This document shows, piece by piece, positions 1,063-43,787 of a DNA stretch of 44,225 bases. Numbering within the stretch: the stretch's first letter is position 1; every line of letters starts with the position of its first letter. The notes under the pieces are model-generated. The model did no database searches. It saw only the letters and a program-made list of their open reading frames with translations, and was not told the DNA's origin. The position numbers and the translations under genes are program-made. The stretch is from an uncultured Campylobacterales bacterium (GTDB lineage: Bacteria; Campylobacterota; Campylobacteria; Campylobacterales; Hydrogenimonadaceae), in contig CAZORY010000001.1 in the NCBI GenBank assembly GCA_964582435.1, forward strand, positions 1 to 44,225, read 5' to 3'.

Positions 1063-1296
1063 ATGGATCCTTTCGATATCCCTCCTCGTCAGCGGACGCG
1101 GCGAAAACCTTTTCGGCCGCGCTGCAAACGCTGCCGAACCAACCGATACATCATCCCGATCGTCTATAGTGCCGCAATCGATGAGGCACTTTTGGAAAAA
1201 GCACGTGAAGGGACGATCAAAATCGGTGGAGATGCGCGTAGCGTCGATGCCCCGAACTGGTACTGCCGGCAGTGCGGAGAAGCTTTTTTACGCTAG
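1063..1296 (+). CDS. Small zinc-ribbon-like hypothetical protein
   Basis: CKRC...IIPIVY...IKIGG...WYCRQCG (two CxxC pairs); ATG at 1063, alternative TTG at 1060. Confidence 0.7.
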   Translation: MDPFDIPPRQRTRRKPFRPRCKRCRTNRYIIPIVYSAAIDEALLEKAREGTIKIGGDARSVDAPNWYCRQCGEAFLR

Positions 1297-2865
1297 CGTG
1301 CCTATCACCTCATTTTTGAGTGCCTGTTTGTCGATCGTTCGACTATGGAGCGATTGACGAGGCATATCGGTACGATGGAGGATATGCACGGGTAACATAT
1401 AATGGGGTAGATGCTTTTTGAGTTCGAAGAGAATTTCGTTTTTTGGGATCGGCCTGTCGGCGCCATAGACCATCACGATCGCTTCCTCGATCTCGTCGTC
1501 AGGGATGGCGAAGACGGCGCACTCGACGATCTGCGGCAAATAGCGTGACACGATACTTTCGATTTCATAGGGATTGACCCTATATCCTTGGGTTTTGATC
1601 ATGTCGTCTTTTCGTCCGACGAAGTAGAGATACCCCTCTTCGTCGGCGTAGACATAGTCGCCGCTAGCTACGACGATCTCGTCGGTCAGTGCGCCTTCGG
1701 GGGCGACGATCTTTTGTAAAATCTTGATACTTTTGAAGCGTTTGGCCGTCTCTTCGGGCGCGTTCCAATACCCTTTGTAGATGCAGGCACCTCGATGGAT
1801 CAGTTCCCCAACTTCTCTAGGTCTACACGCTTCACCTTTTTCGTTCATGATGAAAAGTTCCACCCCCGGCACGGCCTTGCCGATCGAGTCGGGGCGGATG
1901 TGGATCTGGGAAGGCTCCAAATAGGCCGAGCGAAACGCTTCACTGAGCCCATGCATCGCATAGAGTTCGGCTTTGGGAAAGTGGGTCGTGAGGTTTCGGA
2001 TCATCGCGCGGGTGAGGTTGCCGCCCGAGGATGTAATGGCTCTTAGCTTGGCGAAGTGTTCCGGTTTGGGAATACGATGGGCATCGGTATCGAACATTTG
2101 CGTCACATGGATCGGCATGAGGGGGAGCACCGTCACGCCGTCGTCGATGAGGTGCGCGAAAAAGTCCGTAGGAAGGGCGAAACGGTGGATCGCTAGCGTG
2201 GCTTGGTTGTAGAGGGCGGTGAAAATCTGATTGAGACCGTAGTCGAGATTGAAAGAGAGGGTCCCGCTGATGACATCCGCTTGGTTGATCCTGAGATAGG
2301 TCGAGACGATCGCGGCCCCTTCGAAAAAGGCCCGATGGTCGATGACGATGCCTCCCGGATTGCCGGTGGAGGCGAACGTATAGGTGATGGCGGCGTTGTC
2401 GTGGGGATTGACGCGGCTGGTAAATTCGGCGGGATGGCACTTTTCGATCTCTTGAAAGGAGACGCTGGCGCGCTCGTCGGGCGTGTAGGTGACGATGCGC
2501 CCTTTAAAGCCGGTCGCTTCGATCGTCTCGATCTTTTTGGCGTCGGTGACGACGAGGGTGATGCCGGCGTCTTGGAGGATATGGCGAACTTGTTCGGTTT
2601 TGAGTAATCGAGTGATCGGCACGATCACCAAATCGGTGGAGAGAATCGCCAGGATCGCCACGACCTGATCGATCGATTTGTCCGAGTAGATGCCGATACG
2701 GCTACCTCGCGGAAGCTCGAGGCTTTGGAGATAGTGGGCGATACGATCGACCCGTTCGAGGAGTGTGGCGTAGGTGAGTTGTCGGTTGGCGTGTACGAGG
2801 GCTATTTTGTCGGGGGCCGTGCGGGCGGCCGTTTGCAAAAGGGCGCGGACGGTGTTGACGGTCAT
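1288..2865 (-). CDS. AMP-binding (ANL superfamily) enzyme resembling exosortase A-associated acyl-CoA ligases; P-loop degenerate
   Basis: SFNLDYGLNQ, HGLSEAFRS, SGDYVYADEEGYLYFVGRKDDMIKTQGYRV; GGAGG RBS; start overlaps glmL stop. Confidence 0.88.
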   Translation of the reverse strand: MTVNTVRALLQTAARTAPDKIALVHANRQLTYATLLERVDRIAHYLQSLELPRGSRIGIYSDKSIDQVVAILAILSTDLVIVPITRLLKTEQVRHILQDAGITLVVTDAKKIETIEATGFKGRIVTYTPDERASVSFQEIEKCHPAEFTSRVNPHDNAAITYTFASTGNPGGIVIDHRAFFEGAAIVSTYLRINQADVISGTLSFNLDYGLNQIFTALYNQATLAIHRFALPTDFFAHLIDDGVTVLPLMPIHVTQMFDTDAHRIPKPEHFAKLRAITSSGGNLTRAMIRNLTTHFPKAELYAMHGLSEAFRSAYLEPSQIHIRPDSIGKAVPGVELFIMNEKGEACRPREVGELIHRGACIYKGYWNAPEETAKRFKSIKILQKIVAPEGALTDEIVVASGDYVYADEEGYLYFVGRKDDMIKTQGYRVNPYEIESIVSRYLPQIVECAVFAIPDDEIEEAIVMVYGADRPIPKNEILFELKKHLPHYMLPVHILHRTDMPRQSLHSRTIDKQALKNEVIGTLA

Positions 2866-4061
2866 AGAACCTCCTTCGGGATGAGTCCATAAGTCCAGAT
2901 ACGATAGTCGCTATCCATGACGACTTGGGGCGCTTGATGGAAGTGGAGCAATTTTTTGTAAAAAAAATGGATGATCTCTTCTGCTTCGGTGTGTGAGAGG
3001 ATTTGGGTGATGCCGCCGGTTAGCACGATCGTGTTGAGTTTGTCGAGTTTGAGATCGACGTAGTCGGTGTGGTGACCGCTCACTTTGTAGAGGATCAAGA
3101 AGATGGCCAACTGCATCAGCACTTTGGTGGCCGTTTCGCTCATCTCGTCGAGGACATGCTCCGTCTGTCCCAGATGATGAAGCAGTTCGAAAACGAATTC
3201 GTTGGCCCTGGCCGCATGCACGAGACTGGGACGGGATTTATAAACGCCTAGTTTTTTGAAAACGAGGCGATCGTATCCTCCTTCCCCCGTGAGATTGTCG
3301 TCGATCAGATCGGTGCTGTAGTGGATGTCGGTCGTGGCTCCGCCGATATCGATGACGATGAAAGGGTCGGCCACGCCCATCTTCTGGCCGATGAGAGGCA
3401 GGGCTTGGTTGACGATGTAGGGGGTGGCGAAGATCTGATTGTCGGTGATGGCATAGAGCTGTTTGATATCTTCTTTGCCCATGATGTCGGCTTGGTAGAG
3501 GTCCGTCAGGTAGGTCTTGAGAGGTTTTTCGGCGATTTTGAGGCGATCGTCGAGGATATTGTCGAAGATCACCAAATGAGGGATCGCTTCGCTCAAAAAG
3601 CCCCGTTCGCACGCGCTACCGACATAGACGATATTTTGGTAGCGGCACTTTTGCAAAAAATCGACGAGCCGCTCGTCGAAAATCCCGCCCACACCGTCGA
3701 TCCCGCCGACCAAAATCACGACGTCGATCGTTTCGGCAGGGGGCTTGGCTTCTTCGATTTGGCGCCAAAGAAGGGTGTCGATGATGTTGATGCCGGAGTT
3801 GAAGGCGGTATTGACGGCATATTTGAGGCTAAAGGAGCGGGTCAGACCGATGATCAGGGTGCTGAGCCCCCCATTGGCGGAACTGCAGATGTGGATGCGA
3901 TCGGGTGGGTACATCGCGATCGTTCGGCCCGCTTTGTCCATCAAGTCGTCGTGGATCGGTCGGGTGAAATCTCGAAAATATTGGCGCGGCATCCGCCCCT
4001 CTTCGGCCACTTTGAAATAGGTGCTGCCGATATCGATCATCAGGTGGCCTTTTCGTGTCAT
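2862..4061 (-). CDS. glmL: Glutamate mutase L (GlmL/MutL-type accessory or reactivating factor, ASKHA fold)
   Basis: IDIGSTYFK, CSSANGGL, ILVGGIDG, IDIGGATTDIH motifs; follows glmS/glmE. Confidence 0.88.
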   Translation of the reverse strand: MTRKGHLMIDIGSTYFKVAEEGRMPRQYFRDFTRPIHDDLMDKAGRTIAMYPPDRIHICSSANGGLSTLIIGLTRSFSLKYAVNTAFNSGINIIDTLLWRQIEEAKPPAETIDVVILVGGIDGVGGIFDERLVDFLQKCRYQNIVYVGSACERGFLSEAIPHLVIFDNILDDRLKIAEKPLKTYLTDLYQADIMGKEDIKQLYAITDNQIFATPYIVNQALPLIGQKMGVADPFIVIDIGGATTDIHYSTDLIDDNLTGEGGYDRLVFKKLGVYKSRPSLVHAARANEFVFELLHHLGQTEHVLDEMSETATKVLMQLAIFLILYKVSGHHTDYVDLKLDKLNTIVLTGGITQILSHTEAEEIIHFFYKKLLHFHQAPQVVMDSDYRIWTYGLIPKEVL

Positions 4062-5419
4062 TGCATGATTCCTATATCTTGGATGATCTTTTCGACGACC
4101 GATTGCCCCTCTTTCAAGTCGATGCGATGCCGTTCGTACGCGAAGCTTTCATCGGAAATCGGCAGACGCCCCCGCTCGTAGATACGGATGTTCATCTGCG
4201 GATCTCGGACGGTGATCACCTGGTTGGCGTTGATGACGTGGGGAGAGAAGGGGATTTCGAGAAGTCCTTGTTTGATAGCGTTGAAGACTTTGCGCCAGAG
4301 CGTGTCGGCCGGATCGTTGAGGATCGCTTCCATGATTTCGCCCACCATCCGCTCGAGATGGGCCTCCTCCTCTTCGTCGCCGATCGTGGGCAGTCCTTGG
4401 AGGATACCGAGGGTATACTGTACACTGGCGACGGCTCGGGCGTTGGCTTCGGGTGTGGGAATCCCGAACGCTTCGTGACGGGTTTTGGTGATGATCTTGT
4501 CGGCGCCTACCATCGCGGCGATGACGGTGGAGGTGGTGATGAGGGCGTCGGAGTACACTTTGTCGTAGGGAAAAGCGCCCATCCATTGGTGGTAGACCAA
4601 ATGGATACGGGCGTCGTGGTAGCCGAAGTGGTCGGCATAACGACGGGCGAGTCGCTTGAGAACGTTGGCGGTGACGATATCTTGGAGCATCGAGCCACTT
4701 TGAGAAAAACTGACCGAAAAGGAGACGACGCCCTCTTCGAGCGCGAGCAACATCTCGATCAGTTGGATGACGATGACGATCGCCGGCGGTTGGAGGGTGG
4801 CCGAGAGGGGACCGAAAGATTCGCGATTGATCGGTTCGTTGAGACGAGAGTAGTGGGCACAGACTCTCTCGACGTATTTCCAGTAAAGAAAGGCTTTGTC
4901 GAGGGGGAAATTTTTGGAGTAGGGCAGCAGATAGGTGATCGGTCCCCCTTCGATTTCGAAGATGCCCGAAGCGATCGCCATCTCGACGAGAAGCCTCGCA
5001 TCGGGCGTGCCGTGGCGTAGGCTTACGGGGGTGTCGAAGTGCACCATCATCTTGCGGGTGGTGCGGTAACCGTGGTTGATGAGTGGGTAGCCGTTGAGCA
5101 TATCGGTGTCGTTGGCTTCGGAGAGTGCCAGCATCTTTTTGGCCGTAGCGTAGTCGTTGAGGCGGGTGTTGGAGTCGATCGTCAACGGCAAGACGTCGAC
5201 CCCCGCCTCCTTGAACGCTTCGTAGAGGGCGAAAACTTTTTCGTAGGTCGGAAAGCCGCCGCGGGGCTGGACCAACATCTTGTCGGAGGTAGCGAAACGG
5301 TGGGCGATGAAGAGGTTTTTGCTGGCCTGTTTGACGAAAGCTTCGATCTCATCGAAATCGAAATCGTCGACGAATTCGTTGCGGGTGATGATGGCGCGCT
5401 CTTTGTGCAGCAGGCTCAT
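4058..5419 (-). CDS. glmE: Methylaspartate (glutamate) mutase large subunit E
   Basis: QPRGG, TIDSNTR, LNGYPLINHG, RHGTPDARLL, EGGPITYLLPYSK, INRESFGPL, HQWMGAFP, KIITKT.HEAFGIPT. Confidence 0.94.
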   Translation of the reverse strand: MSLLHKERAIITRNEFVDDFDFDEIEAFVKQASKNLFIAHRFATSDKMLVQPRGGFPTYEKVFALYEAFKEAGVDVLPLTIDSNTRLNDYATAKKMLALSEANDTDMLNGYPLINHGYRTTRKMMVHFDTPVSLRHGTPDARLLVEMAIASGIFEIEGGPITYLLPYSKNFPLDKAFLYWKYVERVCAHYSRLNEPINRESFGPLSATLQPPAIVIVIQLIEMLLALEEGVVSFSVSFSQSGSMLQDIVTANVLKRLARRYADHFGYHDARIHLVYHQWMGAFPYDKVYSDALITTSTVIAAMVGADKIITKTRHEAFGIPTPEANARAVASVQYTLGILQGLPTIGDEEEEAHLERMVGEIMEAILNDPADTLWRKVFNAIKQGLLEIPFSPHVINANQVITVRDPQMNIRIYERGRLPISDESFAYERHRIDLKEGQSVVEKIIQDIGIMQ

Positions 5420-5835
5420 AGGCTCGCTCCTCGACGTCTGGCCAGTTCGGCTTCGAGGCGGTCGAGACCTATGTTCAGATCGACTTGGTGAAAAACGAGA
5501 TCGAAGCCGAAACGTTTGAATTTGGCCTCCACTTCTTGGGCATCCATCTCACCGACGCCAAGATTGCCACCGATCATGAAAAGGACTTCTTTACGGAACG
5601 TCACTTCATTTTTCAAGATTTGGAGGTCGCGGCACCACCCTTCCGCTTCGCCGTTGAGCGAAGAGATGAGCAGTACGTCCGCATCCGTTTCGACGACGGC
5701 ATCGAGAAACTCTTCGAGATAGGTATTGACGCCCAGATTGTAGACACTGAAACCTCGCTCTTCGAGTGCGATTTCGATCAAACGGTTGGCTACGACATGA
5801 ATGTCGTTGCCCACGACACCGGTCACCACTTTCAT
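5416..5835 (-). CDS. glmS: Methylaspartate (glutamate) mutase cobalamin-binding subunit S
   Basis: B12-binding domain: DIHVVA (DxHxxG variant), NLGV, ISSLNG, IGGNLGVG. Symbol is the mutase glmS/mamA, not glucosamine synthase. Confidence 0.93.
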   Translation of the reverse strand: MKVVTGVVGNDIHVVANRLIEIALEERGFSVYNLGVNTYLEEFLDAVVETDADVLLISSLNGEAEGWCRDLQILKNEVTFRKEVLFMIGGNLGVGEMDAQEVEAKFKRFGFDLVFHQVDLNIGLDRLEAELARRRGASL

Positions 5836-5867
5836 GACATCACTTGAGAAACTTTTTTCATGATGGC

Positions 5868-5900
5868 ATTTTAACCAAAGGGAGGTGTTTTTTGTATAAT
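5868..5900. promoter_or_regulatory. Divergent sigma70-type -10 elements (glm operon on minus, rraA-like gene on plus)
   Basis: TAAAAT on minus at 5868-5873 and TATAAT on plus at 5895-5900 in an 87-bp intergenic gap. Confidence 0.5.
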
Positions 5901-5922
5901 TTACTCAAAAAAGGCCGTTGCC

Positions 5923-6423
5923 ATGAAATTTTACACCGCCGATATCTGTGACGAACTTCCGGGCGAAGTCCAAGTGTTGGAACCTGGATTTCACCCCTAC
6001 GGAGGGGTGGAGAGCGCTTTTGGGCCGATTCAGACTCTCAGGCTTCATCGTAACAATAGCGCGTTGATCGAGTTGCTCAAAGAGCCGGGAGAAGATCGCT
6101 TCATCGTCGTGGATGTGGCCGGGGCTTACGACGCGGTCGTAGGAGAAAATTTGATGAAACTGGCGGCGCACCATGGCTGGGCGGGAATTCTCGTCAACGG
6201 TTATGTCCGCGATATTCATGTCACGACGACCGTCGAGGTGGGCCTTTGGGCGCTGGGAACCTGCCCCAAAAAGAGTTTCGAGACGAATCCTGGGGAACGG
6301 GGGGTGTCTGTGCATTTTGGTGGTGTCACGTTTCGCAACGGAGACTATCTATTGGCCGATCGAGATGGGATCGTCGTCATCTCCGCCGCTGCGATGGAAA
6401 AACTGCAGAGCAAGCTTTTCTGA
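5923..6423 (+). CDS. rraA: RraA family protein (RNase E regulator / HMG aldolase-like)
   Basis: TADICD, AVVGENL, GWAGILVNGYVRD, GDYLLADRDGIVV. Confidence 0.9.
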   Translation: MKFYTADICDELPGEVQVLEPGFHPYGGVESAFGPIQTLRLHRNNSALIELLKEPGEDRFIVVDVAGAYDAVVGENLMKLAAHHGWAGILVNGYVRDIHVTTTVEVGLWALGTCPKKSFETNPGERGVSVHFGGVTFRNGDYLLADRDGIVVISAAAMEKLQSKLF

Positions 6424-32927: not shown

Positions 32928-33977
32928 ATGGAGATTTTCAAACTTGGCGAGGTAGCCAAAAAGATGCACATGCCGCCTGATCAAGCCAAAAAATTGCTCG
33001 ACGATCATCTGATCCCCCACATCAAAAAGAGTTCCCAGAAGCGAGATACCTACTACGTCCCTCAGTTGACCCTCGATTATGCCAAGAGCGTACTGGGCCT
33101 TCAGAAGGAGAAGGATTTCAAAAAGATCGAATCGGACGCGGCGACCCTTCAGCGCTTCCACAACAAAGGGGGTCCCCGAATCCTCTCCTTTTCCAATCTC
33201 AAAGGGGGTGTGGGCAAGACCTCCATCGCCGCCAACGTCGCCTACAATCTTGCCTTGCTGAACAAACGGACTCTTCTGGTGGATATGGATTCCCAGGCCA
33301 ACACCTCCCGCTATTTCGCGAATCGTTATTTCGTAGGCGAGAGTATCAAGAACATCTTCGACAAAATGACCCGCAAAGAGAGCGTGGACAAGGAGACGGT
33401 ACGCCGCTATATCGTACCCATCGCCTTCGAGAACGCGAAGCTCGATCTTTTGCCCAGCGAACTGAGCCTTGGACGAATCGTGGAGTTGAGTCGGTCGGTT
33501 TTTACACTGCCCCACAAAAAATTGAGCGATCTATTGAAACTCGTCAAGGACGATTACGATTTCATCGTCATCGATACCCCGCCGTCGACGGGTCTTTCGC
33601 TTCATATGGCCCTCTATGCCAGCGATTTGGTCAGTATCGTCACCGATGCGGAGGATTTCAGCGTCAACGGCTTGAACGAACTCTATCTCGAGATCAACGA
33701 ATTGGCCGAAGAGACCGATCACGACGTTCGGGTCGATTCGGTCTTCATCAACAAAATCAAAAAGAGCAACATCCATAGCGTCTATATCGAAGCGATCGCC
33801 GAAATGGCGGTACGAGAAGGGATCGAAAACGTCTACACGATCAAAGACAGCACGCGATTCAAGGAGTCTCAGAATCTCCATATTCCACTCGTCGAATATA
33901 AAAAGGAGTTGGAGAAAAAACTGGTGATCGCCGAAAGCATGCTCGAATATGCCGTCGAAAAAGCGTTGGAGGCGTAA
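32928..33977 (+). CDS. ParA-family ATPase with N-terminal HTH-like extension
   Basis: Deviant Walker A NLKGGVGKTS, LVDMDSQAN, IDTPP; about 80-aa N-terminal extension beginning LGEVAKKMHM. Confidence 0.9.
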   Translation: MEIFKLGEVAKKMHMPPDQAKKLLDDHLIPHIKKSSQKRDTYYVPQLTLDYAKSVLGLQKEKDFKKIESDAATLQRFHNKGGPRILSFSNLKGGVGKTSIAANVAYNLALLNKRTLLVDMDSQANTSRYFANRYFVGESIKNIFDKMTRKESVDKETVRRYIVPIAFENAKLDLLPSELSLGRIVELSRSVFTLPHKKLSDLLKLVKDDYDFIVIDTPPSTGLSLHMALYASDLVSIVTDAEDFSVNGLNELYLEINELAEETDHDVRVDSVFINKIKKSNIHSVYIEAIAEMAVREGIENVYTIKDSTRFKESQNLHIPLVEYKKELEKKLVIAESMLEYAVEKALEA

Positions 33978-33978
33978 G

Positions 33979-34662
33979 ATGGCGAAAGTGAACCTCGAAA
34001 CATTCAAAACCAATGCCAAACGTGCATTGGCGAAAAAAGAGACCCATGGCATTTTCAAACAGCGTCGGGAGAAGTTCGAAACGGTCCCGTTGACGAGTTT
34101 GGACGAGGGGATGCGCCTTAGAATATTTTCTCGTGATTTGGAACCTTTGAAGCGTTCGATCGAGAAATTGGGGCAACTGGAGCCTATCATAGTGCGGCGT
34201 CAAGGTGATCGTTACGAAATACTCGACGGTCATCGAAGGGTGGCGGTGGCGAAGTCGCTAGGTCATGCGGATATAGCGGCGGAAGTGATCGAAGCGGAAG
34301 ACAAAGATGCGTTGTTCCTCCCTTATCTTCTCAATGCCGCGGAGAGTTTCGATCTCATAGAAATAGCTCTCTATCTTCGACATCTCACCCACGAGTTAGG
34401 TATCGATGCCGCGGCGATTCAAGAAGAGATCGGTTTGCGTGTCGATGATTTCAAAGAGCTTTTTTTCGAACGGGGCACGAATCCTCTCGAAGCCTTCAAC
34501 GACCATTTCGAAGGGCTTTTACGACGCCATTTTCGTATCGTCAAACAGCGACTCGATATCGAAAAAAATGGGGTCGGACTGAGACTCGAAGTCGATGAAA
34601 AGGCGGATGCACGCACCAAATCGGAAGTCTATCGGTTCATCTATCGATTGAGTCAGCTCTGA
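33979..34662 (+). CDS. ParB N-terminal (ParBc) domain protein
   Basis: SIEKLGQLEPIIVR...YEILDGHRRVAVA; GGAGG RBS; 1 nt after the ParA stop. Confidence 0.85.
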   Translation: MAKVNLETFKTNAKRALAKKETHGIFKQRREKFETVPLTSLDEGMRLRIFSRDLEPLKRSIEKLGQLEPIIVRRQGDRYEILDGHRRVAVAKSLGHADIAAEVIEAEDKDALFLPYLLNAAESFDLIEIALYLRHLTHELGIDAAAIQEEIGLRVDDFKELFFERGTNPLEAFNDHFEGLLRRHFRIVKQRLDIEKNGVGLRLEVDEKADARTKSEVYRFIYRLSQL

Positions 34663-34736
34663 AACGGGGCAGTGTGATTACGGTTTTTTAGATTCACTCT
34701 TGAAGAGGGGCCGATGCCGCAAAAGGCGAAGGAGGA

Positions 34737-34765
34737 TCGGGGAAGCGCTTCGAACGCTTACCCGA
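34737..34765. terminator. Imperfect stem-loop between convergent parB-like and cytochrome c genes
   Basis: TCGGG..AAGCG / CGCTT..CCCGA pairing; no clear U-tract. Confidence 0.35.
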
Positions 34766-34798
34766 CGCCGATTGGCAAGTAGATGGCGAGGGTGTTTC

Positions 34799-35239
34799 TC
34801 AAGGTTCCCAACGCCATTTGCGTAGCTTTTGATGGCAGCCGACACACTCCATCATGATATGGGTATAACCCGCGGCGATTTTGGAGTAGTCGTGTTTGCT
34901 GAAGATATCTTCACGCATCATACGGGTATAGCGTTCGATATTCATTTCACTCAGTTTCGCCAAGCTCATGGCGAATTTCGGGTTGTCCGGCATATATTTT
35001 TTGAGCGCTTCGCCATGTTTGGTCAAAAAGCCGGGTTGGACCCTTTTGAGAGCCCGTACACCGGCAAGTAGCTGTTCACGATCGTTGTAGAGGATGGCTT
35101 TTTGGATACGCATCAATCCATCCGCCATCGAATGCATCGTCTTTTGGAGCGCTTTGCGCTCCGGGGTCATTGGTACGTTCGTCTGACCGGCACCCAACAT
35201 CACAATTCCGAGTCCCAACGCCATTACGATTCGTTTCAT
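34799..35239 (-). CDS. Periplasmic monoheme cytochrome c, probably class II (four-helix bundle)
   Basis: Signal peptide, single C-terminal CVGCH, helical sequence, AAGGAG RBS. Confidence 0.85.
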   Translation of the reverse strand: MKRIVMALGLGIVMLGAGQTNVPMTPERKALQKTMHSMADGLMRIQKAILYNDREQLLAGVRALKRVQPGFLTKHGEALKKYMPDNPKFAMSLAKLSEMNIERYTRMMREDIFSKHDYSKIAAGYTHIMMECVGCHQKLRKWRWEP

Positions 35240-35334
35240 GGCGACTCCTTTTTGTGAGATAAGTCAATTTTATTCCACGTGCTCGAAAATAGGGTTTAAT
35301 AAAATAAATTGTAATTATAATTTAAGGGTGAAGT

Positions 35335-35652
35335 TCAAGAGAATAGAAGTTGATAGGGGCGCTCGATCCGATCGACGAGTGCGGGAATACTGACATTTCG
35401 GCTGACTCTGGCGAACTCTTTGCCGTCGAGAAAGATAATGGCGGTGGGGATGGAGAAGACGCCGAACGAAGCGGCGATGTCAGGCGAAACTTCGGCGTCG
35501 ATCGAAATCTTTTCGATGCGTGGAAAACGTTCGTCGAAGGCGTCGAAAAGTTTGGGGCGAAGCGCATGGCATACATTGCACCGTTCGCCCCAAAAGTAGA
35601 GCATCACCCCTGCTTTTTCTCGAATGGCTCGTTCGATCTCGTCTCGTGTCAC
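35335..35652 (-). CDS. Thioredoxin-family protein
   Basis: YFWGERCNVC, VFSIPT; GTG start with GAGGAAGG. Confidence 0.9.
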   Translation of the reverse strand: MTRDEIERAIREKAGVMLYFWGERCNVCHALRPKLFDAFDERFPRIEKISIDAEVSPDIAASFGVFSIPTAIIFLDGKEFARVSRNVSIPALVDRIERPYQLLFS

Positions 35653-35698
35653 GCCCTTCTCCTCTGTTTGGCTGGTATCATTCTACCAGCCTTTCGGT

Positions 35699-37579
35699 TC
35701 AAGTTCTATGAGATCGACGATTCATCGCTTCGACAGCGGCTAGAAGATCGAGACCCGCTTCGTTGACGCCGTTTTTGCCTAGATAGTGGGCTTCTCTGGC
35801 GGCGACCCACGCTTTTTCGAAAGTTTCCGGACTCAAACCGCTTCTTCTGTACGCCTCTTTATGATGTTTGGGCAGTATACGGATCTTTTTCTCTTTTTCA
35901 TACAAGGTTCCCACTTCGGCGACCGCTTTGACGACACGATAGATGACGGGTGTGATCGGTGCACCGAAACTGTCGGGCACGCCGCTGAGTGCTCGATCCA
36001 TCAGCTCTCCGGCTTTCGTTTCGACGATGTGACCGTCGGCCAACACTTCCACGAATCCTCTCGCTTCTAGCATATCGACCGCCGCTTCCATCATATGGCG
36101 GTCGTGCTCGGTTTTCGCCTCGTCGAGTAGTCGTTCTAGCGTCATGCCACGATTTGGAATACGTTTGAAAACATCCATTTCATAGCGTGTCATAAAGGGT
36201 CTTCGTTCCACTAGGTCGCTCAATTCGGCGTAGAATTCTCCTCGAGGGCCCGGACCATATTCGCCTAGAATCTTTTCCTCTCGTGCTTTTTCGATCCAAG
36301 CACGGTGGGGGACTTCGAAAGCTCGATGGGTCAGTTTGATCGTTTTGATCGCCTGGGACGAAATGGCTCGTAACTCCTCTTTTTGATCCTTGGCTACCTT
36401 TTCGCCATTCGTCGTCAGATGATAGATCTCTTGGCCTTTCTCATCCTCGCTAGATTCGACGAGGCCGAACGCCTCGAGCCCGTAGAGGTATTCGTGGATG
36501 TCGAAATGGCTTTCGAACCATTTGGCGTGCTCTTTGGCCGCCATGAAAGCTTCGGCGATCTGCCGTTTTTTCAAAGGCATTTCATCGAGTCTACGGCCGT
36601 ACGCTTCGATCAGCTTTTTGTATTCGGCGATTTTTTTATCGACCATCTCTTTTTTGATGTCGTCGATATGAGCTTCGCCGATATTCGCGATGCTGACGAG
36701 CGTTTCGGCCATCTCCTGAGTCAGGGCGAAGCTAAAAAGTCTACGCTCTTGCGGGTTTTTCAGAAGTGCTCGTAGGGCCATCAGATCTTCGCCTGCCGGA
36801 AGTAGTTGCAACGAATCGTCGATATAGCCCGACATCTCCAACTGGGTCGTCGCTTCCTCGCCGATAGGCTCTCCGTCCATCACGTCGGCCACCAGATTTA
36901 TGATCAGCGTATCGATCACCGCACCTTCCGGAGCAGTGGCACCGTTTTCAAGCACTTTCCGCACAGCACGACCGATACCAGTGAACGTGGCGATATCCCC
37001 TCTGGGAATCGAATAGGCGATGATTCTCATCGCTTCGAGTGCCTCTTTTTGAGTCTCGTCGAAGGGCATATGCACCGCTTCGGTCGGTCCTACGGGTGCC
37101 GTGAGGATCAGATGGGCCAGATCGTTGTCGATCATAAGTTCCGGTTCGACGATTTCGAAGGCTTTGAGCACATCTTCTCCCACTTCGTTCAGTTGCCAGC
37201 TATCGGTTTTCCGCTCTTTGTCGTGAACTTTGTGGGCCAGGCCTCTACTTTTCAGTGCCTCCAATGCGATTGCTGAGACATTGCCGCTTCTTTTGGCATT
37301 TTTCATCATCGCCAGGATTTCGCTGCCGATCCATCGGAAACGATCGTTCCAGTCGGTCACTTTGGGTAAAAGACCTTCTTCGATCGCTTCCTGCAAAGCT
37401 CTGGCGACCATTTCGCCACCGTAAGTGAGAGAAACGCTGGCGGGGGTCGGGAAGTGGATCAATCCGGCGAGTTGTAACTGACGCAATCCCGTTTCGTTCA
37501 GCTTACTCACGTCGATTTCTCGCTCTTTCGTTTGCAGCAATGCCAATAGATGCGTCGCTTCGGCTCTTTTTATCACCAT
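35699..37579 (-). CDS. DUF505-like protein with tandem winged-helix-like repeats
   Basis: MVIKR start with GAGGAG; FRWIGSEI motif recalled from DUF505 proteins; repeated L..xG.....LT..G pattern. Confidence 0.7.
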   Translation of the reverse strand: MVIKRAEATHLLALLQTKEREIDVSKLNETGLRQLQLAGLIHFPTPASVSLTYGGEMVARALQEAIEEGLLPKVTDWNDRFRWIGSEILAMMKNAKRSGNVSAIALEALKSRGLAHKVHDKERKTDSWQLNEVGEDVLKAFEIVEPELMIDNDLAHLILTAPVGPTEAVHMPFDETQKEALEAMRIIAYSIPRGDIATFTGIGRAVRKVLENGATAPEGAVIDTLIINLVADVMDGEPIGEEATTQLEMSGYIDDSLQLLPAGEDLMALRALLKNPQERRLFSFALTQEMAETLVSIANIGEAHIDDIKKEMVDKKIAEYKKLIEAYGRRLDEMPLKKRQIAEAFMAAKEHAKWFESHFDIHEYLYGLEAFGLVESSEDEKGQEIYHLTTNGEKVAKDQKEELRAISSQAIKTIKLTHRAFEVPHRAWIEKAREEKILGEYGPGPRGEFYAELSDLVERRPFMTRYEMDVFKRIPNRGMTLERLLDEAKTEHDRHMMEAAVDMLEARGFVEVLADGHIVETKAGELMDRALSGVPDSFGAPITPVIYRVVKAVAEVGTLYEKEKKIRILPKHHKEAYRRSGLSPETFEKAWVAAREAHYLGKNGVNEAGLDLLAAVEAMNRRSHRT

Positions 37580-37718
37580 CGTCAACTCCTCGTTTTTTTG
37601 ATGACATTGTAGGTGATCCGAAGCTTCGTTTCCGCGTCTTAAGTAGCACAAACTTTAGCTTAAAGAGCATTTTATGAAATATAAATAATAATTGTTGAAG
37701 ATTCATAGGGAGGTTGTT

Positions 37719-40700
37719 ATGAGAAAATCGATGCTTCTGTGGCTTTTGATAATGTTTTTTACACCTTTCGTCATGGCTGATGACGGCTATCCACAAGCCG
37801 CTACTTTCGTCCAAGGCGGCTTTTGTAAAACTTTTTCCGAAAAGAGCAGTGACTATCTGACGATGGAAGGCCGTGACGTCTACGGCATGGTCTGGCGTGT
37901 CAAGAAATGCGGATCGCCGAAGATCGAGGATATCGCCTCCCTCCTGGCCCGTCTGAATGCCAAAATCACGAAAAAATCGGGAACGATTTTGCATGGATAT
38001 TGGCAAGAAAAGGAGAAGGTTTACCATTTTAAGATCGACATCGATGACGAAGAGGCGATGAAGATCGTCGAACAACGGTTCGTAGATGTGGATTCTCCCA
38101 TCTCTTTGACGCTGCCTAGGGATGGTTCGCCGCGATATTTTTACGTGAAAATACCGACCCGAAGCTACGTGTCGGCATCGGTTCGACTCGATCGTAACGA
38201 TACCTCGATCTCGATGGAGTTGAACGGTGAGAGGATCGAGGGCGAATATCGTGAAAAGATCGACTACGCCAGGAAAATTTCGGGACAAGAAGGGGTCAAT
38301 CATCTCTATGGTCTGCCGCTTGTGGATGGGGCTTTACGTTGCAGCGTGAGAAACGACTATACGGCCAACGATGTGAAAATGACGATGGCGTTGAACGTCG
38401 AAGGTCGATTGATACCTATCGACAAAGGGCCTCGTACTGGGGGGATCGTCTTGAAAAACGTACCCTACGGGATGGCCAAAGCCATACCTGAAAACGGTAT
38501 GGAGTATATGCTGAAAAATCTGAAACCCGAAGCAACGAACGGTGATTTGACACCCAATGGCGATATCGTCTTTTGGCTTCCTGCCGGATTTTGGAGATTG
38601 CAAGTCTCTCCTTTCGACGATCGTCAAATCGATGCGGGAATCACCCGTGTCGCGGCCCGAATGATACCTGTCTATTCTGGCTACCTGACGGAAGTGAAAT
38701 GGCCGGCCGCGATGAATGCGATCTTCGAAACGGATGACGACGTTCAACTGAAGATTCTCAAACAAGGGACGAAAGCGAAGGGCAGTTATGTCGATTTCAC
38801 TCTCTTGAACTTTCCGCAAACATCCAAGCCTCCTCGACTCGACGAGCTTTCGGTCGTGGCAGGCGGCATCGAGGGCCAACCGCTCGAGGTTCGACGTTTG
38901 CGGACACCGTTGCATATCGTCGTACTGCTCGACTCTTCCGGTTCGATGAAACGGACGATGAAAAAAGCCCTCGATGCGACCTCCAAATTCCTCAAAACAT
39001 TGCCGAAAAAGAGTGTCGTCTATCTGGTGGATTTCGATACGCGTCCCAAGCTCGTCGCCAAAGGAAGGCCGTCGAAAGTGGCGCAATCGTTGAAAAAGAT
39101 CCGAGCCAACGGTGCCACGGCCCTTTACGACGCGTTGGACAAAGGCATCGACCTGTTGCACGGTGCCGATCGTCCCGCCATCGTGCTTTTTACGGACGGT
39201 AAAGATGCCAACTACAACGATACGGGCCCGGGTAGCAAGACGACGGAAAAAGAGATTTTCAATCGCGTCAAAGGGATCGATATTCCGATCTTCACCATAG
39301 GATTCGGGAAAAAACCCGACAGCGTAACGCTCGAAAGATTGTCGTCGCTCACCGGTGGGGCGTTTTATAGCGCCGAAGACTCCGAGGCATTGAAAAAAGT
39401 TTTTGAAAAAATCGAGAAAAACCTAGGCCATCAGTGGCGTTTGACCTATAAAAAACCCAAACGAGGGATGGCGGGAGATCGACCCGTTCTGGCACTTTTG
39501 GTGGACAACAGCGGCTCGATGGAAGGCAAAATGGAGAAGGTACGAAAGATTCTACACGACTTCATCCAAACATTGCCGAAAAATTTCTCGATTCAGATGA
39601 TGACGTTCAGTGACCATGTGCGTATCGAGCAGGTCTTGACCGACGATAGAGAGAGTGTCGTGCGTGCATTGTCGTCGATGAAACCGCTCTCCGGTACGGA
39701 AATCATCGCCTCTTTGCGTTCGGCTTACAAACTTCTTCACGATACACCTTCGAAAAACCGCTATCTCGTCTATATCACCGACGAGGCGATGGCGGTGGAC
39801 GATGATAACAAAGAGGCGTTGGAGAGGATTCTCAAATCCCTCGGCGACGATGGTGTCAAAACCTTGATCGTCGGTATGGTCGCCCGCAAAGATGCCAAAG
39901 TTTTCGAAGAGGCCGCGGCTATGGCGAATGGCCAATCGGTCGTCTCCACCGATCCAAGCGATTGGGAAAAGGCGCTGACCGAACTTTCCAAGAAGGTCGG
40001 CCGCGCCCCGGTCCAAAAGGGTCATACGCTACGCGTGACATGGAAATCGACCGACCGGTATGGACGTCGTTCGCTCCATTCGGATGCGATTTTCGTCGAA
40101 GAAACTCTACCTATCGATCATTCGATCAACGTCGATCCCGAATCTTTGAGGTGGAAAAAAGCGGAAAGAATCAAGCCGTACGACGGTGTGCTGAGCCGTT
40201 TCATCACGGGCGACGACATCGTCGGCCGTCAGGCGCAGGTGATCAAGCGCATCCCTTTGCATGTCACAGCCTCCAATAAAGCGGTGAAAATCACGATCGA
40301 AGAGGCGGTATTTCTCTCCAAACTCAAAGGCGTCGAGCCCTCCAACGGTCGCTATCTGGCATTGCGCCTCAAGATGAAAAATATCCTCAAACCCCAGAAA
40401 GTGGTCGTCTATCCCGACGGATCTTCCCATCCCGCCGCATGGGTGGGCGGTGGCATGGAGAAAAACGCCAGAGTGGTCAAGAAAATTCCCGATTACCTGA
40501 TACCCGATGCGAGGCTACATCTCTTTCTTTCGTGGAATAACCAACGCTTTCTTCCTCTCTCGGACGCCTCCTATCTTGCCAATCTGCCCCTGGTACTGCC
40601 CAGTGACGACGCCATCTACATCACACCTCGCAAAACGGTGGAGGGGACGCTGATCTTCGAGGTACCCGACGAATTTATGACCCAAAGCGCTTTGCATCTA

Positions 40701-43700
40701 TACGATACCGCCTACGGGCACATCGACCTACCCATCAGCGGTGTGATGAAGGTACGCAAAGAGCGGATCGTCCGACTTCCCAAGCGTGTGGAGGGAAAAC
40801 TCTCCGATACGTTTTCGCTGAAAGCCGACGGGATGGTGGATCGCGACAAGGTGGACGAAGTGGAGGCGGAATCGGGCAATCTCTTCCGCCAGGTCGATCT
40901 GACCTTTATCTCGAAGGTCCAGGCGCATCTTTTCATCGATCCTTATCGGCGTTTCAGACTCTTCGTCGAAACCCCCGAGGGGCCTTTTTATTTTTCGATG
41001 CACCCGTTGACCCGTCGAATCCCTCTGGGATTTTACAAACCGACGATTCTCACACCCGGATCTTTCAACAAACTGCGAGTACTTTTCGAAATCCCCAAAG
41101 CGTTGGCGGACTATCCGTGCGCATTGGTCGTCGATCTCAAAGGCGACGACGTCGTACTGCCCCTCAAACGTTCGAAATCTCGAAAAACGCATCCGCCTCT
41201 TGCCCAAGGCGAAGGGGAGGGAGCTTCCGTCAAAGTGTACGGCCTTTATCGTTATGAGGATCATATCGTAGCCGACGTGGCGATCGAAGACGTGCGAGAC
41301 GATGTCTCGACGGTCATAGGCGATTTTCTATCGCTCGACGCGACGAAGGCGGCGAAAAAACGGTTCGCCAAAAGAGATATCGCATTGAAAAAGGGGATCG
41401 AGAGATCCAAAGGTCTGGCAAGTTTCGGACACAATGTCATCAAAAGCGTCGAAGGGGATGTACTACCCGTGAAGCAGGGGTATTTGACGGAACTCTACGG
41501 CGATACCCTCGTACTCAACGGTCATGCACGCAGAGGCTTCGTCTTTTTCGACTTGCCGCCACAGACGAAGCCTCGAGATTTCAAGCTCACTTCCACGATC
41601 TTCAAAGGATTGAACCTCTCGTTGGAGGATAAATTGCCGCCATTTCCCTATGAAGCTTGGCTCACGAGACATACGGAATACACTCCCGACGATAGTGCCA
41701 AGGAAGCGTTGGATGAAGCGATCGCCAAAATGACAAGAATCCGTGAAGCCGAGGGCTTCGTCAAACCAGGAAGCATAGAGATCGCCGCTGTCACCCTCGA
41801 TGGCAAGGTCAAAGGAATTCCCAGAAAACCACCTTCGCTGCTTGTCGGCGGGGCCGATCGGTGGAAAAAGATCCGAACCCTATCCGATCTTGCGAAATCG
41901 GTCAAGAGATTGCGCCTCTACTCTTCCAATGCCCGAGCATGGGAAGTGGCCTACGCACCTGAAGCCGTATGGACCCAAGGATGGACGACGGAGAACGAGT
42001 TGGCGGTGATGGCCGAGAAGATTTTGGCCAAACAAGGGATCGAGACCCATCGCAAAACGGTCGTATTGAACGATCGGGGCAAGGCGGAGGCCCGGAAAGT
42101 TTTCGCCAATGAAAAGGTCGACATTTCGGAACTACCGGCCATCGCCTATCGCGACGAGAAGGGTCGGCGCCATCTGCTCGTGATGCCGCTTTTCAAAGAG
42201 GCCGAGGATTGGAAGGGCTTCATCGATCGTATCGAAGAGGGGAGCCAAAAGGATCTGACCCTCTCGATCGAGGTGGAGATCGTCGCCAAAGCGCTCGCAT
42301 CGGGCCAGATGGAGGCGAGTCGAGAAGTCACCGACGCACTTGCCGGCAGCGACGAGGAGAATTTGAAGAGCTTGACGCTGTTGAGTACCAAGTATACGCT
42401 CGCGCAACTGAGCACCGGCCCCATAGCTTTAGGATTCACTCAAAAACAGGATCTGCAAAAAGGGCTGATCATCCAAGCGGTTTGCGACTCTCCCAAAGGT
42501 AGGGAGATCGGCGAGGAGGTTCTCGAACTCAAACGCTACGAGCCCCTGCAGATCAAGATCTATTTCCATACGCCGAGCGACGACTATCTGCTGGTGCGGG
42601 ATATGGCGAAAAAGGAGTGGCCGACGGAGTCGTTTTTCGTCATGGGTCTCAATGTGCCGGACCTGACCAAAGAGACTCTTCGAAAAGCGGATGCGATCTG
42701 GAGACAAAAGTACGAAAAGTCGAAAAATCCCGATACACTCTCTAGGCTCAAATGGCTTGGAAGCGGGATCGTGGCGCGATTCGTAGGAGCTCAGAGTCCA
42801 TACGAACGAGAACTGGCCAAGAAGCTGCATACTACGATCCTTCGCGTCAAAACCCCCAGAATTTTGGTGGCAGGTTTCAGGCTGGATAGAGAGAGCGGAA
42901 TGCTCGATACGACGCTGGACCTGGTGCAGCCCTATCCCGAGATTCGCGCCGACGAAAAGACCGCCAAGCGTTTCGATACGATGGCAGGATTTTACTACAC
43001 CGACTTGGAAGCCAAAGCGGTCCCAAACGGCGTCAATGCGATGGCGCTACTGGCGGCATTGCCCAAAGATACGAAATTGTTGCCGATACTGCCTGAACAA
43101 AATAGCGAAGTGGCGGAAGTGTTGAAGCGATCGGGATATCCGAGATTCGTCTACGAGCATATCGCCAAAAGTGAAAATTTCCTACTCTTTCCCCAAAAAC
43201 CTTTGCAAATTTCGGATAAAGGCTTTAGGACGGCGTGGTTGGAGATCGAGCCGGAGAGTGGCAAAGTCTGGTCCTATCTAGATAGCGGAGAACGGGGCGT
43301 GGTTGAAAGCCAAATCGGCGAGGCCTTGGCCAGTACGCTCGATTATATGATGGGTTTTTGGCGCGGCGTGCAAAACGCCGTATGGGCGACGGCGGGCTTT
43401 TCCCTGCAGTTGACCGATTGGAAGACGATCAAGCGGTGCGCCCACGGATTCGCCAGACGGCTTGGCAACTATCTGGAAGCGGCCACCCAGCCTCAAGAGA
43501 CGCTCAAGCCTACCATGGATAAGGCCCAGGCCGCCATCTCCCACGATGTCGCCGGAACGATCGGCCTCTCCGACATGGACTATGGGTGTATGGATGCCAA
43601 GAAGCTGGCCAAACTGGTCCAAGATCATGCCGATAGCAAAGCCTGGGGCAAAGATGATTTCAAGGAGATTCTAGACGGTAGCAAATCCCTAGAAGAGATC

Positions 43701-43787
43701 GTGCAAAAAGGGTGGGGCAAAGCGAAAGAGAAGTACCTAGGATTTGCCAACGGCTACAAAGATGGAGTGGATTGGTATTTCAAGTAA
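37719..43787 (+). CDS. Large secreted protein (~2022 aa) with two vWA domains
   Basis: GGGAGG RBS, signal peptide; MIDAS LLDSSGSM...TALYDA...FTDG and LVDNSGSM...ITDE. Confidence 0.88.
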   Translation: MRKSMLLWLLIMFFTPFVMADDGYPQAATFVQGGFCKTFSEKSSDYLTMEGRDVYGMVWRVKKCGSPKIEDIASLLARLNAKITKKSGTILHGYWQEKEKVYHFKIDIDDEEAMKIVEQRFVDVDSPISLTLPRDGSPRYFYVKIPTRSYVSASVRLDRNDTSISMELNGERIEGEYREKIDYARKISGQEGVNHLYGLPLVDGALRCSVRNDYTANDVKMTMALNVEGRLIPIDKGPRTGGIVLKNVPYGMAKAIPENGMEYMLKNLKPEATNGDLTPNGDIVFWLPAGFWRLQVSPFDDRQIDAGITRVAARMIPVYSGYLTEVKWPAAMNAIFETDDDVQLKILKQGTKAKGSYVDFTLLNFPQTSKPPRLDELSVVAGGIEGQPLEVRRLRTPLHIVVLLDSSGSMKRTMKKALDATSKFLKTLPKKSVVYLVDFDTRPKLVAKGRPSKVAQSLKKIRANGATALYDALDKGIDLLHGADRPAIVLFTDGKDANYNDTGPGSKTTEKEIFNRVKGIDIPIFTIGFGKKPDSVTLERLSSLTGGAFYSAEDSEALKKVFEKIEKNLGHQWRLTYKKPKRGMAGDRPVLALLVDNSGSMEGKMEKVRKILHDFIQTLPKNFSIQMMTFSDHVRIEQVLTDDRESVVRALSSMKPLSGTEIIASLRSAYKLLHDTPSKNRYLVYITDEAMAVDDDNKEALERILKSLGDDGVKTLIVGMVARKDAKVFEEAAAMANGQSVVSTDPSDWEKALTELSKKVGRAPVQKGHTLRVTWKSTDRYGRRSLHSDAIFVEETLPIDHSINVDPESLRWKKAERIKPYDGVLSRFITGDDIVGRQAQVIKRIPLHVTASNKAVKITIEEAVFLSKLKGVEPSNGRYLALRLKMKNILKPQKVVVYPDGSSHPAAWVGGGMEKNARVVKKIPDYLIPDARLHLFLSWNNQRFLPLSDASYLANLPLVLPSDDAIYITPRKTVEGTLIFEVPDEFMTQSALHLYDTAYGHIDLPISGVMKVRKERIVRLPKRVEGKLSDTFSLKADGMVDRDKVDEVEAESGNLFRQVDLTFISKVQAHLFIDPYRRFRLFVETPEGPFYFSMHPLTRRIPLGFYKPTILTPGSFNKLRVLFEIPKALADYPCALVVDLKGDDVVLPLKRSKSRKTHPPLAQGEGEGASVKVYGLYRYEDHIVADVAIEDVRDDVSTVIGDFLSLDATKAAKKRFAKRDIALKKGIERSKGLASFGHNVIKSVEGDVLPVKQGYLTELYGDTLVLNGHARRGFVFFDLPPQTKPRDFKLTSTIFKGLNLSLEDKLPPFPYEAWLTRHTEYTPDDSAKEALDEAIAKMTRIREAEGFVKPGSIEIAAVTLDGKVKGIPRKPPSLLVGGADRWKKIRTLSDLAKSVKRLRLYSSNARAWEVAYAPEAVWTQGWTTENELAVMAEKILAKQGIETHRKTVVLNDRGKAEARKVFANEKVDISELPAIAYRDEKGRRHLLVMPLFKEAEDWKGFIDRIEEGSQKDLTLSIEVEIVAKALASGQMEASREVTDALAGSDEENLKSLTLLSTKYTLAQLSTGPIALGFTQKQDLQKGLIIQAVCDSPKGREIGEEVLELKRYEPLQIKIYFHTPSDDYLLVRDMAKKEWPTESFFVMGLNVPDLTKETLRKADAIWRQKYEKSKNPDTLSRLKWLGSGIVARFVGAQSPYERELAKKLHTTILRVKTPRILVAGFRLDRESGMLDTTLDLVQPYPEIRADEKTAKRFDTMAGFYYTDLEAKAVPNGVNAMALLAALPKDTKLLPILPEQNSEVAEVLKRSGYPRFVYEHIAKSENFLLFPQKPLQISDKGFRTAWLEIEPESGKVWSYLDSGERGVVESQIGEALASTLDYMMGFWRGVQNAVWATAGFSLQLTDWKTIKRCAHGFARRLGNYLEAATQPQETLKPTMDKAQAAISHDVAGTIGLSDMDYGCMDAKKLAKLVQDHADSKAWGKDDFKEILDGSKSLEEIVQKGWGKAKEKYLGFANGYKDGVDWYFK

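Follow-up and report, generated by a model that had tools for sequence, protein, structure and literature searches.

What use does a bacterium make of glutamate mutase when no methylaspartate ammonia-lyase (mal) accompanies it? The question is raised by a 44,225-nt stretch of DNA, here called the window, which spans positions 1 to 44,225 of the forward strand of contig CAZORY010000001.1 in the assembly GCA_964582435.1 (G000; 1.68 Mb, 98.3% complete) of an uncultured Campylobacterales bacterium of the Hydrogenimonadaceae. Four open reading frames (ORFs), all on the minus strand, encode the B12-binding subunit of the mutase (glmS, 5416..5835), its catalytic subunit (glmE, 4058..5419), a GlmL-like ATPase (glmL, 2862..4061) and an AMP-binding protein of the ANL fold (1288..2865), called the ligase below. 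A first-pass annotation had read them as one unit with 4-nt overlaps whose 3-methylaspartate is adenylated and then joined to a metabolite, glycan or lipid. The ORFs lie where it placed them, and each of the three junctions (glmS/glmE, glmE/glmL and glmL/ligase) is an ATGA overlap. Our analysis points to a different use, which we put forward tentatively, with belief and doubt nearly in balance: a B12-dependent pathway dedicated to turning glutamate into 2-oxobutyrate, in which GlmL and an altered ligase are accessories. The module itself is a real, previously undescribed variant of glutamate-mutase biology; no published description was found among the papers listed in a literature search with most subscription journals outside its coverage, and passages of PMC6461909 and bioRxiv 10.1101/2025.11.21.689712 do not describe it.

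Judged by its residues, the mutase is a true glutamate mutase, and its activity is predicted on that basis. GlmS (139 aa) passes the cut-off of NF002612 (160.6 bits, cut-off 110), falls below that of TIGR01501 (102.5 bits, cut-off 135.8) and aligns to solved MutS/GlmS. Its D-x-H cobalt-ligand motif reads GNDIHVVAN, and GND[IV]HVVAN recurs in 133 of 139 relatives, the other 6 giving no match to the regular expression. In glutamate mutase the arginine claw, E171 and Y177 contact the substrate (PMC10947579). GlmE (453 aa; PF06368) scores slightly below the cut-off of TIGR01503 (366.3 against 390.1 bits), matches the clostridial structure 6h9e at E 6e-83 and, when aligned, retains R66, R100, R149, E171, Y177, Y181, F216, H291, M294, K326 and E330 in clostridial numbering. 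The annotated motifs with glutamate-binding Arg, Glu and Tyr residues do fall on the first six of these. The R66, R100 and R149 motifs are present in 147/147 GlmE relatives and the E171/Y177/Y181 motif in 144/147; the K-T-x-x-E motif, which contains K326 and E330, is found in the window protein and, by a strict regular expression, in 140/147 relatives. K326 and E330 are adenosine-binding residues. In a tree of 23 rows the 20 module GlmE sequences group in a single clade (100/100) at a long distance from two fused mutases and from the GlmE of E. coli, three long branches of unsure placement. GlmL (399 aa; PF13941 MutL) scores far below the equivalog NF040745 (77.9 bits, cut-off 475), and its motifs DIGSTYFK, DIGGATTD and TGG (ASKHA phosphate-1, phosphate-2 and adenosine), aligned to E. 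coli GlmL, are conserved in 126 sequences. From its family it is likely a chaperone or reactivase that maintains the mutase cofactor.

The order glmS-glmE-glmL-ligase is not due to chance. GlmE is present in 37/401 genomes of the phylum (the carriers), including 1/4 genomes of the same genus and 0/276 of the two largest sampled families; among named relatives, records of Hydrogenimonas, Nitratifractor and Sulfurovum are nearest. The same GlmE subfamily was found in 1/351 genomes sampled from the phylum of genome G401. Collection scans matched the module to 433 genome and 439 metagenome stretches, and the locus counts given here refer to the best 80 of each, a choice biased towards close relatives. 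glmS lies upstream in all 77 genome loci with enough flank. glmE is followed by glmL and the ligase gene in 56/59 genome loci, strictly contiguously in 47, and both genes are present in 53/53 metagenome loci with enough flank. The ligase gene was found in every carrier and in 0/22 non-carriers. The conservation of gene order that the first-pass annotation proposed to look for is indeed there. The unit nevertheless comprises five genes: a divergent rraA-like gene (5923..6423, plus strand), previously taken as its boundary, is present in 37/37 carriers vs 8/364 other genomes. It stands head-to-head with glmS in both phyla sampled, is divergently adjacent in 48/66 genome loci and is present in 56/60 metagenome loci.

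The lyase is absent from the window, as annotated, and was not found elsewhere in the genome, where E. coli O157 MAL has no tblastn match. Searches with TIGR01502 gave 0/37 carriers over the cut-off, with two weak matches of 23 and 29 bits against 286, and 0/5 among further genome handles, one apparently a duplicate of G144; mal was likewise not found in G427, G429 and G742. The same search detected the mal of E. coli O157 at 542 bits. A lyase elsewhere in the genome combined with an unlinked ligase had been named as the outcome that would speak against the first-pass model; instead, mal was over the cut-off in no carrier and all have the ligase. Short of a non-homologous lyase, ordinary glutamate fermentation through mesaconate is hardly credible on these results, even though the mutase subunits and GlmL are the same as in E. 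coli O157.

What, then, could consume 3-methylaspartate? The product of the divergent gene (166 aa) belongs to the RraA/HMG-aldolase family and scores above the NF006875 cut-off. It contains G74-E75-x20-R96-D97, and E/D-x20-R-D is found in 49/49 and 58/58 relatives; we take the x20 spacing to be that of the RraA/HMG aldolase site. G74, R96 and D97 correspond to G101, R123 and D124 of the P. putida aldolase, and E. coli RraA has RQ at the R96/D97 position. HMG/CHA aldolases, which are class II pyruvate aldolases, decarboxylate oxaloacetate by means of Arg123 (catalytic) and Asp124 (metal ligand) (PMC5065237). By this correspondence the RraA-type protein is likely a methyl-oxaloacetate decarboxylase. 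An AspC/TyrB-family transaminase gene stands tail-to-tail with rraA in 28/48 metagenome loci and in 3/57 genome loci (L112, L115 and L117), all gammaproteobacterial. In total 32/80 metagenome loci, differing in GC content, contain such a gene, and no other flanking family occurs in more than 9. Its top solved match is E. coli aspartate transaminase (AspAT; E 3e-130).

These genes suggest a route of three steps. The mutase, a step well supported by residues, would convert glutamate to 3-methylaspartate; aspartate transaminase (AspC), linked in one lineage and presumably an unlinked housekeeping enzyme in the Campylobacterota, would yield methyl-oxaloacetate; and its decarboxylation by the RraA-type protein would give 2-oxobutyrate, probably for isoleucine, as an auxiliary route. 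With the lyase missing, it would be this last step that draws the reversible mutase reaction forward. Gene content, linkage, residues, the absence of mal and the loss of ligase motifs are observed, and the reactions, their direction and the use of 2-oxobutyrate are inferred. A precedent comes from E. coli, in which methylaspartate rescues a 2-oxobutyrate auxotroph, presumably via AspC and methyl-oxaloacetate (bioRxiv 10.1101/2025.08.26.672309). It also speaks for the route that neither mal nor cimA was over its cut-off, the latter in 0/57 genomes.

The ligase (525 aa) keeps the features expected of a protein that binds a beta-amino acid and adenosine. Its predicted structure (pLDDT, a confidence score, 82.8) has the ANL fold, and a fold search returned ANL enzymes alone, which supports the fold and cannot judge activity. 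An atlas search gave AMP-binding clusters alone, and a search of representatives gave 1 family member among 150 matches, the rest dominated by multi-module nonribosomal peptide synthetases. Its closest stand-alone PDB match is VinN (entry identity from a table in PMC11253843; VinN numbering carries a 16-residue tag offset). D208, Y209, S280 and R312 align without gaps to VinN D230, F231, S299 and R331, and the short loop of VinN is shared, while VinN K330 corresponds to F311. The amino-acid pocket is invariant in the family, as are E309, D403, R418, K424 and G427, and the adenosine and hinge motifs are intact.

Two motifs of the adenylation reaction are altered. In the P-loop (A3; residues 162-172; 2350..2382, minus strand), which reads YTSGST in VinN, Phe164 replaces the conserved Ser and the loop Lys is Gly in this copy; the change from Ser to Phe is found in 213/213 family members, and the positions after it are relaxed. 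The A10 region (residues 502-513; 1327..1362, minus strand) has a two-residue insertion and Thr510 at the position of the catalytic Lys. Only 4/213 family members have the A10 GK; Lys stands at the A10 position in 37/213, and Gln is commonest. The invariant A10 lysine (K517 in GrsA) is key to adenylation, and the A8 residue K434 to thiolation (PMC11253843). In contrast, a search with the intact ligase of locus L127 gave 120 sister proteins, of which 118 have a P-loop of the Ser type; A10 GK is present in 93/113 full-length sequences. When 102 family and 113 sister sequences are aligned together, both groups share the pocket and adenosine motifs, and the positions that have switched or become relaxed include the P-loop and A10. 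Because the whole family has changed in both motifs and its sister group has retained them, the ligase is probably a non-adenylating helper. It probably binds aspartate or methylaspartate together with an adenosine nucleotide, and would act as a regulator or cofactor-handling partner. PtmA2 is a known non-adenylating ANL enzyme (PMC6594144).

The partners that an adenylating ligase would serve are also missing. No acyl carrier protein (ACP), decarboxylase or polysaccharide genes are conserved at the loci, and TIGR03099-like neighbours are absent there, the examination covering the loci and including no genome-wide exosortase search. The first-pass annotation had seen neither a dedicated ACP nor a decarboxylase, and in the G000 genome we found a single ACP, outside the module locus, and only partial decarboxylase matches (31–34%), elsewhere in the genome. 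The ACP sits between genes that we take to be fabG and fabF, presumably a fatty-acid cluster. The suggested likeness to exosortase A/EPS-associated ligases stays below the TIGR03098 cut-off (466.8 against 592.35 bits), and the hint of surface modification is not supported, the ligase having no conserved polysaccharide neighbours. Two other loci do fit the adenylation and surface model. L127:3625-13672 (G427) and L128:8702-15373 (G429) each encode a fused GlmS-GlmE and an intact TIGR03098-like ligase among glycosyltransferase and sugar genes, with a TIGR03099-like decarboxylase in L127 and an ACP-like ORF in L128; neither of these last two proteins has a match in the 160 module loci. We regard L127 and L128 as a candidate methylaspartate-derived glycan modification system. 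The window module looks like a derivative that gave up such an intact-ligase, glycan-type role, although the comparison is unrooted.

A further puzzle is where the mutase obtains adenosylcobalamin. MetH is present in 37/37 carriers, CobA/BtuR in 2/37 and a PduO/EutT-type adenosyltransferase in 0/37, in searches whose controls matched 7 and 9 of 14 reference genomes. Thus 35 carriers, 11 of them from one genus, have MetH and an adenosylcobalamin-type mutase with no CobA, PduO or EutT-type gene found. The B12 uptake and adenosylation genes that the first-pass annotation proposed to look for are represented in G000: metH, a 466-aa gene and cobA/btuR stand in a row on contig C17 (L126:6541-12000), and the top family of a receptor is BtuB, below its cut-off. 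cobA lies near metH in 4 other genomes as well and is present in 4/4 gammaproteobacterial carriers. The module proteins themselves match no Pfam or NCBIfam family of known ATP:corrinoid adenosyltransferases (CobA, PduO, EutT). In 7 genomes glmS-glmE is split from glmL-ligase, yet in 5 of these glmL and the ligase gene still share a contig and lie no more than 2 kb apart; 2 of 5 displaced ligases have a stop. These are the copies at G756:C173:29313-30878 and G757:C23:21758-23323, which have moved with glmL away from glmS-glmE, contain one internal TAG and are possibly decaying.

Evidence of expression comes from S. multivorans, a cultured carrier with proteome data. SMUL_1981 to SMUL_1978 are annotated as mutase S, mutase E, a hypothetical protein and an AMP-binding protein, the order of the module (PMC4585668); the match rests on gene order and annotation and not on sequence. 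The proteome has 12 columns, with values for the ligase in 11, for E in 7, for S in 3, for the protein in the GlmL position in 1 and for an unlinked RraA in 6 (PMC4585668). The products of SMUL_1978-1981 were detected in mineral medium (PMC4585668), which is compatible with a housekeeping role.

Several observations weigh against the route to 2-oxobutyrate. The carriers are kin, so co-occurrence and linkage counts are not independent tests. All 37 carriers have ilvA, which would make the route redundant for isoleucine, and neither isoleucine genes nor an attenuator was seen near the module at the examined loci. Methyl-oxaloacetate also decarboxylates spontaneously (bioRxiv 10.1101/2025.08.26.672309), so RraA would not be strictly required. 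The linked transaminase occurs in no Campylobacterota locus and has no tblastn match in G000, which encodes another AspAT-like protein. The S. multivorans medium contained no added B12 (PMC4585668). The reading of the ligase as non-adenylating has evidence against it too: a P-loop Lys or Arg is retained in 160/163 ligase family members, and in 105/163 the residue just ahead of the A10 position is a Lys, which may compensate in part, so some adenylation activity may remain. The weak point is that the pathway assigns no chemical job to a ligase that is present in every carrier with an invariant pocket. A role as sole isoleucine route was considered and is ruled out by ilvA.

The original proposal, in which 3-methylaspartate is adenylated by an active ligase and ends up on a metabolite, glycan or lipid, would now have to work through an unusual P-loop and an unlinked acceptor, and we consider it unlikely. 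VinN as best stand-alone match with four corresponding pocket residues, the invariant E309, D403, R418, K424 and G427, the retained P-loop Lys/Arg and a sister group in polysaccharide loci with a fused mutase all speak for activity. Set against them are the family-wide Phe and the rarity of A10 GK beside a sister group that keeps both motifs, the loss of the loop Lys as well in the window copy, and the lack of a linked carrier protein or decarboxylase. Activity would also leave RraA and AspC unexplained. Alternatively, the altered ligase and GlmL might serve the mutase in place of an adenosyltransferase, by making, loading or repairing its adenosylcobalamin, an idea compatible with the pathway. 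The 35 carriers with MetH and no adenosyltransferase found would suit it, as would the adenosyltransferase in the glm operon of E. coli O157, the proximity of glmL and ligase in 5/7 split genomes and the pattern of invariant adenosine-binding and changed triphosphate-handling motifs. However, G000 and all four gammaproteobacterial carriers have CobA yet retain the ligase, the invariant pocket is one for an amino acid, and we know of no corrin site in the ANL fold. The ligase is far easier to detect than GlmL in the S. multivorans proteome, two of the five displaced ligases have a stop, and ready-made cofactor could be imported; taken together, we think this role very unlikely. A slightly smaller chance still attaches to the fuller version, in which the P-loop-altered ANL protein, working with GlmL, would represent a new, fourth class of enzymes that adenosylate or load cobalamin, within a dedicated glutamate-to-2-oxobutyrate pathway of bacteria that lack CobA, PduO and EutT.

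RraA might instead be a synthetic aldolase, joining the enolate of 2-oxobutyrate to an aldehyde or keto acid to give, after transamination, a branched hydroxy-amino acid for the ligase-like protein to bind or transfer, in a nikkomycin-like logic. Mutase, aldolase, transaminase and ligase-like genes do travel together, and the RraA family consists of class II pyruvate aldolases (PMC5065237). The loci contain no linked acceptor-forming gene, however, the transaminase is AspC-like and a literature search for nikkomycin support gave no relevant paper among those listed, all of which makes this chemistry distinctly improbable. We attach as little credence to metabolite repair, in which promiscuous carboxylases and transaminases would form stray 3-methylaspartate and methyl-oxaloacetate; the former would return to glutamate and the latter would go to 2-oxobutyrate, while the ligase-like protein would sense or scavenge. 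The equilibrium of glutamate mutase favours glutamate, and steady low-level expression and a patchy, dispensable distribution (1/4 same-genus genomes) would be expected of such a system, but disposing of one pool by two routes looks redundant.

The route to 2-oxobutyrate can be compared with several known systems. Like the fermentative operons of E. coli O157 and clostridia, the window encodes S, E and L proteins with all substrate-binding residues, and its GlmE is 37% identical to that of E. coli. Unlike the E. coli O157:H7 operon, which is glmS-glmL-glmE-mal with a fumarase and its own adenosyltransferase, it has the order S-E-L, no mal and no linked fumarase or adenosyltransferase, added RraA-type and ANL genes and a GlmE of a separate clade. 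The vicenistatin module (VinH/VinI, VinN, VinL, VinO; PMC11284099) likewise sets a mutase beside an ANL protein, and four of five VinN determinants match. The analogy drawn by the first-pass annotation therefore stands as to linkage and the shared beta-amino-acid pocket and fails at the P-loop and A10 Lys; the module further differs in F for K330, in having GlmL and RraA and in lacking an ACP, a decarboxylase and a polyketide synthase. The closest sister ligases, those of the TIGR03098/TIGR03099-type loci L127 and L128 (36% identity), share the DYGLNQ and GL[TS]E.FR pocket and a linked mutase, and differ in their canonical P-loop and A10 GK and in the decarboxylase or ACP-like gene of their glycosyltransferase and sugar gene surroundings. 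The chemistry proposed here for mutase, AspC transamination and decarboxylation matches the methylaspartate route of E. coli, whose steps are promiscuous or spontaneous (bioRxiv 10.1101/2025.08.26.672309), whereas the module is a candidate dedicated gene set across two phyla. PtmA2 sets a precedent for an ANL fold without the adenylation half-reaction; it has an adenylating partner, PtmA1 (PMC6594144), and no second ANL protein co-occurs with the module at its loci.

The known uses of glutamate mutase are fermentation and natural-product starter units, and the module, if read correctly, would add a third. It would be a genetically dedicated methylaspartate route to an isoleucine precursor, whereas reports on E. 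coli, which go back to the 1960s, describe such a route as a side activity only; and it would give a physiological substrate to an RraA-family protein. Being widespread in vent, sediment, seawater and sulfur-cycling bacteria, it would also be an unrecognised B12 sink. It sets two puzzles, a strictly conserved ANL protein without adenylation motifs and the supply of adenosylcobalamin in 35 of 37 carriers with no known adenosyltransferase found.

The spacer between glmS and rraA (5836..5922, 87 bp) contains back-to-back −10-like boxes: TATAAT at 5895-5900 directed towards rraA, and TAAAAT at 5868-5873 on the minus strand directed towards glmS. Similar paired boxes were seen by eye in relatives. 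A promoter scan lists the rraA-facing site, its number of sites being at chance level (4 vs 2.7 ± 1.9), as was the outcome of a terminator scan. No riboswitch or other RNA control element was found by Rfam matching in the window, where RNase P RNA is the only match, nor in contig C17 or 9 loci.

Some loci contain additional genes. In L093:1787-2866, L095:9388-10371 and L104:9388-10485 one gene is inserted between glmE and glmL, and reads as what we take to be a LysM-domain membrane protein. Between rraA and glmS, L106, L109, L110 and L116:7155-7514 encode a protein of 119 aa in which the CxxCH motif occurs several times. Elsewhere in the window, positions 1-200 hold the 3′ part of an RNase P class A RNA (RF00010, 131.8 bits), followed by a gene for an alpha-type carbonic anhydrase (299-1045). 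The region 32928-43787, which may be an island, encodes a ParA-/ParB-like pair, a protein of 2031 aa containing two von Willebrand A domains, and a DUF505 protein.

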